Part shown: positions 1,104-7,484 of the stretch, piece after piece
How the letters are laid out: each line of letters starts with the position of its first letter
Numbering within the stretch: the stretch's first letter is position 1
Assembly: GCA_048938025.1 (NCBI GenBank)
Contig: JBHLMP010000059.1
Location: forward strand, 1 to 19,200
DNA: 19,200 nucleotides
Reading direction: 5' to 3'
DNA from: Promethearchaeota archaeon
Lineage (GTDB): Archaea; Asgardarchaeota; Lokiarchaeia; Sigyniarchaeales; SOKP01
The notes under the pieces: generated by a model
Told to the model about the DNA's origin: nothing
Seen by the model: the letters and a program-made list of their open reading frames with translations, nothing else
Database searches by the model: none
Made by a program: the position numbers and the translations under genes

Positions 1104-2273
1104 TTATACGGTTTCAATAAGTTTATAGATATTTCCATCAAAAGCACAGAAGTATAATTCACTAGAAGCATCAATTCCGAATGATGTTATTTCTAAGTCA
1201 GTATTTACTAATATAGTATTATTGGTTTTGTGTATACCATCATATTCAAGTGCCCATATTTGTCCATATTCGTAATCTCCGTATATATAGCTACCAGTTA
1301 AATTTAACAGACTTGGGCCATAATATACAAAGCCTCCTATAATTGAATGACCTACATCATGGCTATATTCAAAAATAGGCAATTCGAGGTTGGTTGTGTC
1401 ACATGCAAAAGGTAGTAAATAACAATGCGCACCTTCCATAATATTCCAACCATAATTTTTCCCTTTTTCGATAATGTCAATTTCTTCCCAGCTGCTTTGT
1501 CCATTATCTGCTGCCCAGAGCCATCCAGTCTCATTATCAAAACTGAAACGCCAAGGGTTTCTTAATCCATAAGCATAGATCTCTCTTCTATAGGTGGTAT
1601 TCATAAATGGATTATCAGGAGGAATACTATATGGATCTCCTGAATCAACATCAATTCGTAAGATCGATCCTAATAGTGTGTTTAAATTCTGAGCATTACC
1701 GTATGGATCTCCTCCACTACCTCCGTCCCCTAATCCGATATATAGGTAGTCATCTGGTCCAAAAATAATTTGACCACCATTATGATTTGTAAAAGGTTGT
1801 TCAACCGATAAAATATTTATTTCGCTGCTACTATTAGCCTTATTTGGATCGGTTGAATTTACGGTAAAGCGTGAAATTATAGTCCTACGGGGATCATCAG
1901 TGACATAATCAATATAAAAATATCCATTTATGTTATAATTAGGATGGAAAGCTAATCCTAATAAACCCATTTCTCCTTGAAAAATCACTTTTTCTTGAAT
2001 ATCAAGAAATACTTCTCTTTTGGTGACATTCACGGTATTATTAAAAACATAAATTATGCCTTTTTGTTCAAGAATAAATATTCGATTTGTTCCATCACCA
2101 GGTTCATAAATACCCACTGGATGATTAAAAGTAAGATTTGGGAAAGCTAATTTAATATTATAATTATATATTTTCTTCTTCTCCGTTGAAAGAGAATTCC
2201 AACCTATTAAAAAACCCGTAACTGATATAATAATAAATATTAAAATTAACAGCACTTTCTGATTCTTCTTCAA
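1104..2273 (-). CDS. PQQ-dependent glucose/sorbosone dehydrogenase family (beta-propeller) with N-terminal membrane anchor
   Basis: GEMGLLGLAFHPNY, NHNGGQIIFGPDDYLYIGLGDGG, EIYAYGLRNPWRFSFD and GKNYGW motifs; hydrophobic N-terminal helix; TTG start with upstream GGGGA. Confidence 0.9.
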   Translation of the reverse strand: MKKNQKVLLILIFIIISVTGFLIGWNSLSTEKKKIYNYNIKLAFPNLTFNHPVGIYEPGDGTNRIFILEQKGIIYVFNNTVNVTKREVFLDIQEKVIFQGEMGLLGLAFHPNYNINGYFYIDYVTDDPRRTIISRFTVNSTDPNKANSSSEINILSVEQPFTNHNGGQIIFGPDDYLYIGLGDGGSGGDPYGNAQNLNTLLGSILRIDVDSGDPYSIPPDNPFMNTTYRREIYAYGLRNPWRFSFDNETGWLWAADNGQSSWEEIDIIEKGKNYGWNIMEGAHCYLLPFACDTTNLELPIFEYSHDVGHSIIGGFVYYGPSLLNLTGSYIYGDYEYGQIWALEYDGIHKTNNTILVNTDLEITSFGIDASSELYFCAFDGNIYKLIETV

Positions 2274-2422
2274 AATTAAATCCCCAATAGGTTTGTTGCC
2301 ATAATAAAAAAAGCATATCAGAAATTTTAATAGTTTTTGCTTATAAAGTAAAAGGCTATTAATTAGAAAACACGTTATTTAAAGGATATATAAAAAAGCA
2401 AATATTATTTCTTGTTAATTAA

Positions 2423-2469
2423 GATCACATATATAAAAATGATTTAAATATATAAATAACTAAAATCAA
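2423..2469. repeat. Direct repeat copy 2 (47 bp)
   Basis: gatcacatatataaaaatgatttaaatatataaataactaaaatcaa; see copy 1 at 1005-1052. Confidence 0.85.
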
Positions 2470-2545
2470 TATAGGTATAGAGAAATTAATTTAAAATTAA
2501 TTGGTGAATTTTAAGACAAGAAATTTTAAAAAATAGAGGAAAAAA

Positions 2546-2950
2546 ATGTCTGAAATTCTGATTGTTGATGATGAGCCTGATATTGTGAGTTTAACGCAAA
2601 AATTTTTGGAATTGGGGGGTTTCAATACAATTACTTGTAATAACGGGAAGGAGGCATTAAAAATTGTTGAAGAAAGATATAAAGATATCTCGCTTATACT
2701 ACTTGATATTATGATGCCTGGAAAATCAGGTTATGCTGTTCTTGAAGAAATTAAAACTAATGAAAAATATAAACATATTATTGTAGTTTTATTTACAGTA
2801 AAAAGTTTTAATGAAGATGTTCAAAAAGGAAAAAAGTTAGGGGCCGATGCCTATATAACTAAACCATTTTCAGGCAAGGAACTATTAAAAAGAATAAAAG
2901 AAATCTTAGAAAAAAAAGATAAAGAAGAGGATGAAGAAAAAGAAGACTAA
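2546..2950 (+). CDS. Stand-alone response regulator receiver (CheY-like) with acidic tail
   Basis: ILIVDDE, phospho-acceptor LLDIMMP, conserved T and YITKPF; no output domain; GAGG upstream. Confidence 0.95.
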   Translation: MSEILIVDDEPDIVSLTQKFLELGGFNTITCNNGKEALKIVEERYKDISLILLDIMMPGKSGYAVLEEIKTNEKYKHIIVVLFTVKSFNEDVQKGKKLGADAYITKPFSGKELLKRIKEILEKKDKEEDEEKED

Positions 2951-3133
2951 TTTTTCATAAACTTTACAATTAAGCTTTAATGATTCTTTTTTACTTAACT
3001 TAAATTATCAATCTCGAGATCAATATCAATTTCTAGTTAATAAAATTTTAACAAAACTTATTAATATAAAGGAACGAAAAGATAGATTATTCAAATATTT
3101 AAAATTGAAAAATAACAGAGAGTATGCTCTAAA

Positions 3134-3811
3134 ATGGTGTATGAAGCAGAACCAGATAGAATCCCTTTTATAAAACAATATTTCTCTGTCATCATATTAG
3201 CCGCAAATATTATAGTATTTATTTGGCAATTAATGGATCCTGCAGGAGATATGCATATTGAAGCTGCTTTTGTTCCATCTGATTTCTTTAAAGGTAAAAA
3301 TTTATGGACCTTATTTAGCTCCATGTTTATGCATGGAGATATTGTACATATAACCATGAACATGTGGTTTTTCTTTGTAATAACTGATAATTGTGAACAT
3401 GCTATGGGGCACATCTTATATCTAATTACCTATTTCGCATCAGGGTTGTTTGGCAGTTTACTTCACGCTTTGAGCACATTAATCATTCCAATATCAGGAT
3501 TTGAAGATATCCCTTCACTAGGAGCTTCTGGAGCAATTTTTGGCCTTATGGCAGTTTATGCGATTTTATATCCTGGTAATAAATTTTATATTCCCTCTAC
3601 AACAGGCATGACAATGCGAAAAGTAGGTGCGGCAGTTTTTATCGTTACTTACTTTATAGCTGAATTAGCTTATGCTGTATATTCGATCGCTTTTCCCTTA
3701 GGTTCCCAAACTGCGCACTTTGCTCATGTAGGTGGATTTGTGGCTGGAGCAATAATAGCTGTAGTATTTAAAGGAGTAAAAGGTACATCGTATAAGAAAA
3801 AACCAAAATAA
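3134..3811 (+). CDS. Rhomboid family intramembrane serine protease
   Basis: FMHGDIVHITMNM (HxxxN), catalytic GASGA and AHFAHVGG; several transmembrane helices. Confidence 0.93.
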   Translation: MVYEAEPDRIPFIKQYFSVIILAANIIVFIWQLMDPAGDMHIEAAFVPSDFFKGKNLWTLFSSMFMHGDIVHITMNMWFFFVITDNCEHAMGHILYLITYFASGLFGSLLHALSTLIIPISGFEDIPSLGASGAIFGLMAVYAILYPGNKFYIPSTTGMTMRKVGAAVFIVTYFIAELAYAVYSIAFPLGSQTAHFAHVGGFVAGAIIAVVFKGVKGTSYKKKPK

Positions 3812-3927: not shown

Positions 3928-5286
3928 ATGTCTACAAATATAGTTGTAATTGGTATGGGATATGTTGGTATCCCAATGGCAGCTTTGTTGGCAGATGTAA
4001 ATGATTTTTATGTTACTGGAATTCAACGAAAGTCGAAAAGATCAGGATGGAAAATAGATTGGCTCAATAATGGGAAGAATCCTTTCGAGGGAGAGGAACC
4101 AGGATTAGATGAGCTGATAGATAGAGTTGTAAAGAGAGGCAAATTTAAAGTCACAGATAAATATGATGATGTTGATGATGCTGATTTTATTCTCATTGAT
4201 GTACAAACACCAGTGGATTTATACTCTAAAATTCCTCGATATGAATCATTAGAAGAAGTTTCTAAAAAAATTTCAAAACATTTAAAAAAAGGAGTCACGA
4301 TCATAATTGAATCCACGGTAGCACCAGGGACAACCGGTAATATAGTTCAACCAATATTAGAAGAAGGCAGTGGATTAAAAAGAGGAAAAGATTTTTTTCT
4401 AATATTTTCATTCGAACGAGTTATGCCAGGAAAAATGCTCGAATACATAACTGACATGGAAAAAGTAATTGGAGGAGGGTGTGATGAAGCAAATAAAAAG
4501 GCGAAATTCTTATATGAGAAAGTAATTAAGAAAAATATAAGAGTTACTGACACATTAACAGCAGAATTAACGAAATGCATCGAAAATACTTATAGGGATG
4601 TTAATATTGCTTTTGCTAATGAAATGGCGTTGTTATGTGAAGATTTTAATAGAGATATATTTGAAATTATAGAATTGATAAACCAAAGGCATGATAGAAT
4701 GATGCATTATCCTGGTTCTGGTGTAGGTGGTCACTGTCTTACGAAAGACCCTCATTTACTCGAGTATGGTCACCGTACGTATACAGAACATAAATATAAT
4801 TCTGATATCTTGTTGAAGGCAAGAGAATTGAACGATTTCATGCCTCGCCATATGGTAGAGTTGATGGAGGATACGTTTAGAGAATCACACAGATTAGTAG
4901 ATAATATTAAAGTAGTTCTTCTAGGAGTTTCTTATAAGGCAAATACAGATGACACAAGAAATACCCCCACTGAAAACATAGTTAAAGTATTAAAAAGTAG
5001 GTATCATTCTCATAATATAATTTTTATAGCACACGATCCTTACGTTAAAGAGCGAGAATACAAGGAAACTGAACTTACTGATGATTTTGATAAGGCAGTT
5101 TCCGGAGCAGATGTTCTCATTTTTGTTACCAATCACCATGAATATTATAATATTGATCTCGACGATCTTAAGAAGAAGGTTAGAACCCCGATTATTATTG
5201 ATGGTAGAAATATTTTTAATAAAAAATTAGTTGAACAAAAAGGTTTCATCTATCGTAAAGTTGGAGAAGGACCTAAGAAACCTTGA
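3928..5286 (+). CDS. Nucleotide-sugar dehydrogenase (UDP-ManNAc/UDP-GlcNAc 6-dehydrogenase, WecC/WbpA-like)
   Basis: GMGYVG Rossmann motif, ESTVAPGTT, ENTYRDVNIAFANE, catalytic GVGGHCL, YKANTDDTRNTP and IIDGRN. Confidence 0.93.
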   Translation: MSTNIVVIGMGYVGIPMAALLADVNDFYVTGIQRKSKRSGWKIDWLNNGKNPFEGEEPGLDELIDRVVKRGKFKVTDKYDDVDDADFILIDVQTPVDLYSKIPRYESLEEVSKKISKHLKKGVTIIIESTVAPGTTGNIVQPILEEGSGLKRGKDFFLIFSFERVMPGKMLEYITDMEKVIGGGCDEANKKAKFLYEKVIKKNIRVTDTLTAELTKCIENTYRDVNIAFANEMALLCEDFNRDIFEIIELINQRHDRMMHYPGSGVGGHCLTKDPHLLEYGHRTYTEHKYNSDILLKARELNDFMPRHMVELMEDTFRESHRLVDNIKVVLLGVSYKANTDDTRNTPTENIVKVLKSRYHSHNIIFIAHDPYVKEREYKETELTDDFDKAVSGADVLIFVTNHHEYYNIDLDDLKKKVRTPIIIDGRNIFNKKLVEQKGFIYRKVGEGPKKP

Positions 5287-5330
5287 AAAATATTAGAATA
5301 TCTTATAGAACTTGTAATTAAAACTTATCT

Positions 5331-5471
5331 TTATCGTTCTTTTTTCTTTAACTTTTCTTCTTGGTGTTTAAACTTTAATGCTCGTTTATGCCACATGTTA
5401 ATTAATGAACAACTAGTATAATAGCAATCATCATCAAAGCCCAAATCTAAATAATCTTCTTTTTCATCCAT
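5331..5471 (-). CDS. 46-aa microprotein, Cys-containing paralogue of 5649-5798
   Basis: Below the ORF-track cutoff. MDEKEDYLDLGFDDDCYYTSCSLINMWHKRALKFKHQEEKLKKKER, running ATG 5471 to TAA 5331. Upstream AAGGG; aligns with the neighbouring ORF. Confidence 0.65.
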   Translation of the reverse strand: MDEKEDYLDLGFDDDCYYTSCSLINMWHKRALKFKHQEEKLKKKER

Positions 5472-5584
5472 CTTATAATACCCTTTAAATTCTTATAAAT
5501 TTCAACATAAATAAGGGTTAAAAAAGTACTGTTTATAAAAAATAGAAGAAGAATGATTATTATTAATTATTAATAAATACATTC

Positions 5585-5646
5585 TCTCAAGTTCTTGCAG
5601 AACTTTAAAATTAAATCCTAACATTTGACGATTTAATTCTCTGAGA
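5585..5646 (-). promoter_or_regulatory. Structured 3' element (two hairpins closed by a short stem) directly after the TGA-containing ORF
   Basis: Minus strand: UCUCA ... AGAAUUAAAUC/GAUUUAAUUUU (11 bp, one G-U) ... AAGUUCU-GCA-AGAACUU ... UGAGA. It begins 2 nt after the TAA at 5649. Confidence 0.4.
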
Positions 5647-5648
5647 TA

Positions 5649-5798
5649 TTAATTATTTAGTTTTGATGATTTTTTGGCATGTCGTCGTTTTTTTATACTA
5701 CGAATGCAGCTTATAATTCCATCAACAATGCCTCAACCTGTACAATATTGTTCCGTTTCATATTCACTGTTGTCTAATTTATTTTTCCACTCAGACAT
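5649..5798 (-). CDS. 49-aa microprotein with an in-frame TGA in a CxxU motif: candidate selenoprotein, or a nonsense pseudogene
   Basis: MSEWKNKLDNSEYETEQYCTG(TGA at 5733-5735)GIVDGIISCIRSIKKRRHAKKSSKLNN then TAA. Alternative ATG at 5804. The TGA aligns with Cys21 of the adjacent paralogue. Confidence 0.55.
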
Positions 5799-5976
5799 AT
5801 TCATCCACAGGTTCTAATATTTTTTAATTGAAAATATTAATAAGAAAATAAATAGATTGTTGTTTTAAATAATAACAGTTCAAAAACTACTTTTACATTA
5901 ATTTTATTAAAAGACTAGCAATTGTTAAAATTAGTAGAAAATTTTGTTCTTCAAACCATTTGAAAATTGATATGAA

Positions 5977-6615
5977 ATGACCTCAAAAAATAATATTAAA
6001 ACAATAGTATTTGACCTAGGAGGGGTGTATTTCACTCGTGGTTCTCATTTAGCAATTGAAAAAATAATTGACATTTATAGCATTGAAGATCAACAATCAG
6101 TAAGAGAGTTCTTCAGAGATAGTTATAAAAAAGAAGGGCATAAGTTAAGATTAGGATTAATTAATATGGATGAGTTTGAAGAAGCATTTGTAGCAAATTT
6201 CAATATAAACATTGATAATATCCACCATATACGCAATATCTGGTTTGGATCTTACGTTCCCCATTATAAAATGAAAGATTTGGTTTTAGATTTAAAAAAT
6301 TTTAGACTAATTGTATTTAGTGGAAATATTAAGGAGAGAGTTGAATTCCTTGATACTCGATATAATTTTCTTAAATATTTTGATAGTTATTTGTTTAGTT
6401 ATGATTATAAAAAAAATAAAAATGATATTGCGTTTTATAAAGAACTCTTAAATCATCTCAACTGTAAACCGTCTGAAGCAATTATGATTGATGATGAGAA
6501 TAAAAATATTAAAATGGCTAAGTCTTTAGGTTTAAATGCAATATTGTATTATTATACCGAACAACTTGTAGAAGAATTAAAAAAATATAACATCCCAATA
6601 AGTATTAAGATATAA
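5977..6615 (+). CDS. HAD-superfamily hydrolase (YihX-like phosphatase)
   Basis: Motif I VFDLGGV, motif II FSGN, motif III K and motif IV MIDD...NI...A...G. Confidence 0.88.
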   Translation: MTSKNNIKTIVFDLGGVYFTRGSHLAIEKIIDIYSIEDQQSVREFFRDSYKKEGHKLRLGLINMDEFEEAFVANFNINIDNIHHIRNIWFGSYVPHYKMKDLVLDLKNFRLIVFSGNIKERVEFLDTRYNFLKYFDSYLFSYDYKKNKNDIAFYKELLNHLNCKPSEAIMIDDENKNIKMAKSLGLNAILYYYTEQLVEELKKYNIPISIKI

Positions 6616-6632: not shown

Positions 6633-6965
6633 ATGGCTGCAATTAAAGAATTAAAAAAGGAACTTGCCGAAATAAACTCTGCTGTAAGAGAATTATCGGA
6701 CAAAGTGATTCAAGTAAGCAATAAGCTTTCAGTAAGTATGGATAAAGTCGCTACAGAATTAAATGAAACTAATTTAGCGATAAGAGAAAGTTTGAAATTG
6801 ACTTCCGAGACTATTAAAGAAATGAGTAAAGCATTTTCAAAAGCATTGGAGGATACTATGAACAACATGCAAGAAATGAAAATCCAGATGGACATTCGAG
6901 ATACTGTTCTTAAAAGTCTGGGAATTGATGGTATAATTCCAGATTTTCTTAAGAAAAAAAAATGA
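6633..6965 (+). CDS. Hypothetical coiled-coil protein
   Basis: 110 aa with periodic hydrophobic residues over about 90 aa; ends LGIDGIIPDFLKKKK; 17 nt after the HAD gene. Confidence 0.75.
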   Translation: MAAIKELKKELAEINSAVRELSDKVIQVSNKLSVSMDKVATELNETNLAIRESLKLTSETIKEMSKAFSKALEDTMNNMQEMKIQMDIRDTVLKSLGIDGIIPDFLKKKK

Positions 6966-7268: not shown

Positions 7269-7484
7269 ATGAAGCCGACCCCAACTGAAAGGACACCTCC
7301 CTTATGTTATATATGTGGGAAAAGTTGTGAAGATTCAGTAGAGGATTTATATTATTGTATTTGTGATGTTGTTATTTGCCATAGTTGTATAAATACTGTC
7401 AAAAAGAACGATCAAACTTGGGTTTGTCCACATTGTAAGGAAGCCAATGATGTAGAAAAAAGCAAATTATTTAGATCAACTTGA
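7269..7484 (+). CDS. Stand-alone C4C4 RING-type zinc finger protein
   Basis: C-x2-C-x13-C-x-C-x4-C-x2-C-x12-C-P-x-C. Confidence 0.75.
   Translation: MKPTPTERTPPLCYICGKSCEDSVEDLYYCICDVVICHSCINTVKKNDQTWVCPHCKEANDVEKSKLFRST

Follow-up and report, generated by a model that had tools for sequence, protein, structure and literature searches.

Two Candidate Selenocysteine Microprotein Families and a Conserved Y-Shaped RNA Element in a Family of Lokiarchaeia

Layout of the Locus

Investigation of a stretch of 19,200 nucleotides (nt) from a Promethearchaeota archaeon of the Lokiarchaeia (contig JBHLMP010000059.1 of assembly GCA_048938025.1; the whole stretch is hereafter called the window) revealed two microprotein genes, termed gene A and gene B, in a gap of 690 nt that separates a UDP-glucose/GDP-mannose-dehydrogenase-family gene from a HAD hydrolase gene (Table 1). 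Gene A contains one in-frame TGA, proposed here to encode selenocysteine (Sec), and is directly followed by a Y-shaped RNA element, the putative selenocysteine insertion sequence (SECIS) of this gene. The genome of the window comprises 3.52 Mb in 88 contigs with a G+C content of 29% and is labelled G000 among the compared species-representative genomes.

Both open reading frames (ORFs) are located on the minus strand, where the preliminary description of this DNA had placed them (A 5798-5649, B 5471-5331), and gene B is convergent with the dehydrogenase gene. When the TGA is read through, the two products have similar lengths (A 49 residues, B 46), as had been claimed; under genetic code table 11 gene A yields only an ORF of 23 residues (5804-5733). 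The G+C content of the gap is 24-26%, compared with ~32% in the flanking genes. Neither Rfam at the gathering threshold nor ARAGORN gave a match anywhere in the window, and a DNA repeat search detected no DNA-level duplication between A and B. The most conserved DNA of the gap is the stretch right past the stop codon of gene A and not the ORFs themselves.

Conservation of the In-Frame TGA in Family A

A tblastn-type search with the read-through A product as query detected a homologue in 22 of 24 relatives of the same genus, with one in-frame TGA per match. A profile of 22 A sequences found homologues in 103 of the 135 genomes of the taxonomic family, representing 10 of its 13 genera, and every best match (103/103) contains exactly one TGA, the extra TAA and TAG entries in these matches being due to extension of the match beyond the true stop. 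The TGA occupies a single column of the alignment (...C-T-G-U-G-I-[IV]-D-G...) in 22/22 sequences of the genus and in 15/15 further sequences, 13 from nine other genera and two from the same genus; it is thus not unique to this assembly and stands in the same column in all 37 aligned sequences. The distance from start codon to TGA changes by whole codons only. Beyond the family, the profile gave one weak match in 265 genomes of the phylum at a threshold of E 1e-3 (E 7.3e-5, within a frame of 575 residues).

All 18 full-length database proteins of family A (P0003-P0020) show tryptophan at the TGA column (CTGWGIIDG). As these entries come from short metagenomic contigs, with a TGA=Trp table used in gene calling, they do not constitute independent evidence, and the tryptophan is probably an artefact of the table picked by the gene caller. 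In the genome of the window, TGA ends 190 of the 1446 open frames of at least 300 codons and is therefore an ordinary stop codon, which argues for local recoding and not for a reassigned code.

Sec/Cys Alternation in Family B

Regarding gene B, a profile search of the 154 genomes of the order found 66 copies in 64 genomes, all of the same family and from four genera. One TGA is present in 62 of these copies, and the remaining four (in G000, G022, G078, and G091) have a Cys codon; phylum-wide, only one weak outside match was found in 265 genomes. In the alignment (...D-D-D-C-Y-x-T-S-[U/C]-...), the TGA of the relatives falls exactly at the TGT of the window, which makes B a second new Sec/Cys family, present in this genome in its Cys form. 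Three of the genomes with Cys-B, G000, G078, and G091, are closely related and have near-identical A and B proteins, while G022 is a separate case.

The preliminary description had set the TGA of A opposite the Cys of B and had regarded B as a Cys paralogue of A. The pair from this genome gives a correspondence at chance level: the local BLOSUM62 score of A against B is 31 with the TGA scored as Cys, which was reached by 3.6% of 5000 shuffles, and 21 with X at the TGA column, which was reached by 42% of 3000 shuffles. Since the resemblance does not exceed chance in the shuffles, the single-genome alignment proves nothing alone. It does emerge from the relatives' sequences: hhalign aligned profiles of 22 A and 25 B sequences with a probability of 62% (E 7.3e-5) and matched the Sec column of A to the Sec/Cys column of B. 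This gives moderate support to paralogy of the two families, and the earlier view of B, correct as to the Cys form, has to be refined to that of a second family in which most copies have TGA.

Selenocysteine Machinery

The Sec machinery which the preliminary description had given as reported for Lokiarchaeota was found in this genome. Genes encoding SepSecS (484 bits) and EFsec (244 bits) are present on the same contig, two tandem selD genes have one in-frame TGA each (loci L004 and L005), and a PSTK-like gene was detected at 48 bits, below the curated cut-off. Between SepSecS and EFsec lies a candidate tRNA-Sec whose anticodon is UCA and whose T loop contains an insertion of 31 nt; it scored 34.6 bits, likewise below the cut-off, and was missed by ARAGORN. 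Scores below cut-off are expected in both cases, as the PSTK model is eukaryotic and the tRNA is intron-bearing; the insert matches the 31-nt T-arm intron reported for the tRNA-Sec of Loki (Mariotti et al., 2016; PMC4989117). SepSecS, the tRNA-Sec candidate and EFsec form a compact cluster within ~5.5 kb. SepSecS is present in 130 of the 135 genomes of the family, and owing to this near-universal presence its co-occurrence could not discriminate.

The Y-Shaped RNA Element

An element of ~70 nt is present past each of the 22 A genes and 23 TGA-bearing B genes examined, starting 0-15 nt past the stop codon or overlapping it (46 aligned elements). It folds into a three-way junction of a closing stem (AUCUC/GAGAU), hairpin a, with a stem of 8-10 bp and an apical loop of 11-12 nt, and hairpin b, with 4-6 bp and a CGCAA-like loop. 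In the window, the closing stem pairs 5646-5643 with 5588-5585, hairpin a extends over 5640-5607 with its apical loop at 5629-5618, and hairpin b over 5605-5589 with the loop UGCAA. Among the unpaired bases, the invariant ones are AA past the closing stem, AAA (65/65 elements) and the terminal UAG (63-65/65) of the apical loop, and G-C in the loop of hairpin b.

The covariance model of the element, R1, covers 65 copies in 39 loci. In its alignment, which was fitted to the model and so favours structure, 95% of cells are in standard pairs, compared with 25-60% when the partners are slid, compensatory changes occur at 15 of 21 pairs, and none of 500 shuffles reached any of five measures; hairpin a, with covariation, had also emerged beforehand from an independent MAFFT/RNAalifold analysis. 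Across the genome of the window, R1 gave one strong match, the element behind gene A (70.7 bits), the next best reaching 27.5 bits, and nhmmer with the element alignment found the window element only. The weak R1 matches (at most 27.5 bits) are not behind TGA-containing ORFs and were dismissed as chance; a loose Y-shape descriptor, with 316 matches genome-wide, was too unspecific for use.

In five whole genomes, all 11 R1 matches are at A/B loci, and the R1 search found no element behind the Cys-B genes of G000, G078, and G091. In G070 and G049, where A and B are ~20 nt apart, a single element is located 3' of B, the arrangement reported for the lokiSECIS of HdrA-VhuD (Mariotti et al., 2016; PMC4989117). 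The element of gene A in G000, G078, and G091 is like the B-type of other species (hairpin a AAUUAAAUC, hairpin b AAGUUC...GAACUU) and not like the A-type, which suggests replacement or gene conversion of the element in the lineage where B became Cys. In one complete genome, a second locus (L031, G006:C1:188000-193500) contains at 2010-3483 two extra TGA-bearing B copies, each with an element, indicating that the family can be duplicated; an A-type element at L031:2010-2079 lies beside a masked (N) stretch near a rhomboid-family gene.

Comparison With Canonical SECIS Elements

The lokiSECIS is described as a type I eSECIS-like element in the 3' untranslated region, with a 9-bp stem and an apical loop of 11 nt that starts with adenines and ends in (A)G, and with a core in which AUGA precedes the stem and GA (or AA) follows it (Mariotti et al., 2016; PMC4989117). 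A pattern scan of the genome for AUGA, a stem of 7-10 bp, an A-rich loop ending in G and then GA/AA gave 138 sites, from which ten canonical SECIS elements were chosen by eye (loci L069-L078; Table 1). Nine of the ten are located behind a frame with an in-frame TGA within ~100 nt, the coding context of the one on C54 being ambiguous, and four are 3' of TGA-containing VhuD-type genes. RNAfold predicted a second hairpin, in many cases with a GCAA-type loop, directly past the main one in 9/10 and a stem enclosing both in 6/10, so that a Y shape with a GCAA-type side loop is normal for SECIS elements of this genome; the side hairpin is not mentioned in the consulted parts of the papers of 2016 (PMC4989117) and 2024 (PMC11227280). 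The SECIS elements of the two selD genes are a longer variant, which has a GAGUUC/GAAUUC-type sequence after the main stem in common with the A/B element.

The A/B element and the canonical SECIS elements share their position, Y shape, stem length and the signature of the apical loop (AAAAAUGUUAG on C66 vs. AUAAAAUGUUAG). Judged by the published description of the lokiSECIS, the A/B element agrees in 3' position, stem and apical loop, and departs from it in the core. Where canonical elements have the core, it has invariant UCUC-AA / GAGAU flanks; its 5' junction consists only of AA(N), 2-3 nt, the outer stem pairs Watson-Crick with covariation, and there is no GA/AA directly 3' of hairpin a.

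Interpretation and Alternatives

Taken together, these features make it highly probable that gene A encodes a selenoprotein of ~50 residues, as the preliminary description had proposed and as the conserved TGA, the coding signature downstream of it and the Sec machinery support. Its UGA (5735-5733) would be recoded to Sec by the SepSecS/EFsec/tRNA-Sec system of this genome, with the conserved Y-shaped RNA that adjoins the stop codon of A on its 3' side (5581-5649) as the directing signal. Gene B would belong to a second, probably paralogous, microprotein family with Sec in most species, which in this lineage would have exchanged Sec for Cys (TGT) and lost the RNA element that had followed it. 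That the inserted residue is Sec and that the RNA acts as a SECIS is what we infer from these sequences, the RNA being most likely the SECIS of genes A and B in a variant form.

Several points weigh against this reading. No Cys or other sense codon was found at the TGA column of family A in the 103 homologues family-wide, and a Cys homologue at the Sec column is the usual diagnostic, though not a requirement. The related genomes are non-independent samples. The A/B element has no AUGA...GA/AA core, which is invariant in the ten canonical elements, and model R2, made from the ten canonical cores, found no A/B element at E<1 in 136 kb (the best overlapping matches reached 14.1 and 12.6 bits, E 3.4 and 7.3); for these two reasons the element is not filed as a canonical lokiSECIS and is termed SECIS-like. 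Its closing stem is nearly invariant in sequence and so has no covariation support, and the Cys-B gene of G022 keeps its element, which makes the coupling of element and TGA imperfect. The evidence comes from sequence comparison and structure prediction, and the function proposed below we infer from a motif, a charge pattern and one medium-confidence model.

It appears unlikely that the UGA is read through as a residue other than Sec, by near-cognate Trp or Cys or in response to a non-SECIS signal, with the RNA serving as a stability, termination or regulatory element. An RNA that has no AUGA/GA core and is missed by the canonical model would fit this alternative, as would the tryptophan in 18/18 database proteins, which merely reflects the TGA=Trp table on short contigs. 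Against it, TGA alternates in B with Cys and not with Trp, SepSecS is found nearly throughout the family, and the apical loop and architecture match the known SECIS elements of this genome. Furthermore, the element was lost with the change from Sec to Cys in one lineage, and adjoining A and B genes share one element as in HdrA-VhuD (Mariotti et al., 2016; PMC4989117).

It is somewhat less plausible still that the UGA is a true stop, in which case A would be a peptide of 21-25 residues and the conservation downstream would serve the RNA element or another non-coding role. The ORF does end at the TGA under table 11, with TGA a normal stop in this genome, and part of the conservation at the C-terminus of A (KNLKE) is due to the RNA element, into which the 3' end of the longer homologues extends. 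However, the 22 codons past the TGA/Cys column are free of stops in frame 0 in all 22 A and all 25 B sequences, whereas stops interrupt frame +1 in 21 A and 24 B sequences and frame +2 in 20 A and 21 B sequences. Invariant downstream residues are encoded by synonymous codons (Asp GAT/GAC, Ile ATA/ATT/ATC, Tyr TAT/TAC, Arg AGA/CGA/AGG), and the pooled Nei-Gojobori ratios of nonsynonymous to synonymous differences (pN/pS), with pS near 0.6 and close to saturation, are 0.43 upstream and 0.47 downstream in A, and 0.24 upstream and 0.45 downstream in B. In the four genomes with a Cys codon at this column of B, the frame continues. The sequence past the TGA is thus conserved as coding sequence under purifying selection. 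All three outcomes that the preliminary description had named as refuting its reading, a TGA confined to this assembly, no conservation beyond it and a genome devoid of Sec machinery, are contradicted by the data.

There is very little to recommend a non-coding RNA locus in which both ORFs are incidental: the low G+C content is that of the other non-coding stretches of the window and no protein family is matched, but the A/B ORFs show third-position bias, pN/pS values of 0.24-0.47 and a frame-specific absence of stops, and the protein profiles retrieve homologues across 10 genera. Finally, a nonsense mutation or sequencing error in a Cys codon, which had been considered a real alternative as TGA is one substitution from TGT, is refuted by the same TGA in 103/135 genomes of the family, no homologue having TGT or TGC there.

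Predicted Protein Features and Neighbouring Genes

Scans of A and B against Pfam and NCBIfam with E up to 10 gave no family, only sub-threshold noise, and the ESM Atlas gave no usable match. The AlphaFold model of A (mean predicted local distance difference test score, pLDDT, 72; predicted template modelling score 0.40) consists of a helix at 3-13, a loop with C19-T-G-U22 and a helix at 23-47, the first half of which has pLDDT 84-87. The layout common to A and B is an acidic N-terminal part, a Cys...Sec pair and a C-terminal helix that is hydrophobic and then polybasic. The pair takes the form C-x-x-U in 20/22 A sequences and C-x4-U in B; the Cys of CxxU is missing in 2/22 aligned A sequences and in G004. 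In the model of A, the loop that carries this pair caps the N-terminal end of a long helix that is amphipathic and polybasic. A and B may therefore, speculatively, be small selenol/thiol redox or soft-metal-binding peptides whose basic helix docks with an acidic partner such as a membrane surface, nucleic acid or protein; the preliminary description had thought of a possible redox, metal-binding or selenium-sensing pair.

Regarding the genes around A and B, the convergent dehydrogenase gene adjoins them in 30 of the 38 loci of relatives, and three small ORFs beyond the HAD hydrolase gene recur with them to varying extents (Table 1); this context offers no clue to the function of A and B. Immediately upstream of A, the window has the HAD hydrolase gene, but only one of the 38 loci contains it and most relatives have a homologue of the ORF at 6633-6965 as the neighbour, so that the HAD hydrolase gene looks like a lineage-specific insertion.

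Table 1. Positions of the features discussed, in the window (numbered positions) and elsewhere in genome G000 (contig:positions).
Feature	Position	Strand	Remarks
Gene A, 49-residue microprotein read through one UGA	5649..5798	-	MSEWKNKLD...YCTG-U-GIVDG...basic tail; stop TAA 5651-5649
In-frame TGA of gene A, proposed Sec codon (codon 22)	5733..5735	-	One alignment column across homologues
Y-shaped RNA element, proposed SECIS, directly 3' of gene A	5581..5649	-	Model R1, 70.7 bits
Gene B, 46-residue microprotein, Cys form of Sec/Cys family	5331..5471	-	M.E.EDYLDL.FDDDCY.TS-[U/C]-..NMW..RA.K...
TGT of gene B (Cys 21), TGA in most orthologues	5409..5411	-	Alignment: 23 TGA + 2 TGT of 25
44-nt spacer from gene B stop to convergent UDP-sugar dehydrogenase gene	5287..5330	-	RNA element absent (no R1 match)
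UDP-glucose/GDP-mannose-dehydrogenase-family gene	3928-5286	+	
HAD hydrolase gene	5977-6615	+	
Small ORF, 110 residues, no confident family	6633-6965	+	With A/B in 23/38 relatives' loci
Small ORF, 64 residues	6980-7174	-	With A/B in 19/38 relatives' loci
Small ORF, 71-residue RING-like zinc-finger protein	7269-7484	+	With A/B in 13/38 relatives' loci
Tandem selD genes (L004, L005)	C35:31639-33734		
SepSecS, tRNA-Sec candidate, EFsec	C48:21260-26818		
Canonical SECIS loci (L069-L078), part 1	C15:31194-31283, C26:7036-7125, C29:10320-10409, C54:16824-16913, C66:23660-23749		
Canonical SECIS loci (L069-L078), part 2	C72:82287-82376, C76:18047-18136, C77:4277-4366, C85:3040-3129, C87:42184-42273		

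Significance and Comparison With Known Systems

The selenoproteins reported for Loki are HdrA, VhuD, VhuU, PrxL, and SPS, with no further candidate in the consulted parts of the report (Mariotti et al., 2016; PMC4989117). The Asgard census, a homology search with known families only, lists seven families (Huang et al., 2024; PMC11227280), and the families of archaeal selenoproteins number 11 according to a review of 2026 (PMC13188914). A full-text literature search found no description of microproteins like A and B; supplementary tables were outside this search and may hold unassigned candidates. On the present sequences, A is very probably a new, clade-restricted and obligately Sec-containing microprotein. 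As about three in four genomes of a Lokiarchaeal family have A, always with TGA, the Asgard selenoproteome would be under-counted, and A and B would be additions to the few archaeal selenoproteins listed so far. Such genes are cut short by gene callers or given Trp at the UGA, and calls with TGA=Trp hide selenoproteins in protein databases.

A further proposal, which we advance tentatively and at somewhat less than even chances, is that the A/B element represents a new class of functional SECIS that dispenses with the AUGA/GA kink-turn core, and that A and B are selenol/thiol microproteins confined to this clade, which may pair as a redox or metal-handling heterodimer and arose de novo in one Lokiarchaeal family. 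If true, what the Lokiarchaeal SECIS reader recognises would be the A-rich/UAG apical loop together with the three-way junction and not a kink-turn. The AUGA/GA core is the main argument for the Loki-to-eukaryote SECIS transition, and a new class would bear directly on the origin of the eukaryotic SECIS bound by SBP2. As the apical hairpin is kept and the core is missing, the A/B genes provide a natural experiment as to which features of a SECIS the archaeal machinery requires.

Among known systems, the eukaryotic Rdx group (SelW, SelT, SelH) has CxxU at the N-terminus of a helix in a thioredoxin-like fold with beta strands. Gene A is similar in that the model places CTGU ahead of helix 23-47, but it differs in having only two predicted helices, in being half the size and in showing no homology detectable with Pfam. 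VhuU, a subunit of the F420-non-reducing hydrogenase, resembles A and B as an archaeal protein of ~50 residues with a single Sec; unlike VhuU, A and B match no hydrogenase family in Pfam or NCBIfam (E up to 10) and have no adjoining hydrogenase genes. The two proteins match none of the seven Asgard or eleven archaeal selenoprotein families given in the consulted parts of the census (PMC11227280) and the review (PMC13188914). The selenoprotein genes of Lokiarchaeota, PrxL, VhuU, HdrA-VhuD, and SelD, are those which A and B otherwise resemble, with an in-frame UGA and a structured RNA past the stop codon in the same lineage and with the same Sec machinery (Mariotti et al., 2016; PMC4989117; Huang et al., 2024; PMC11227280).

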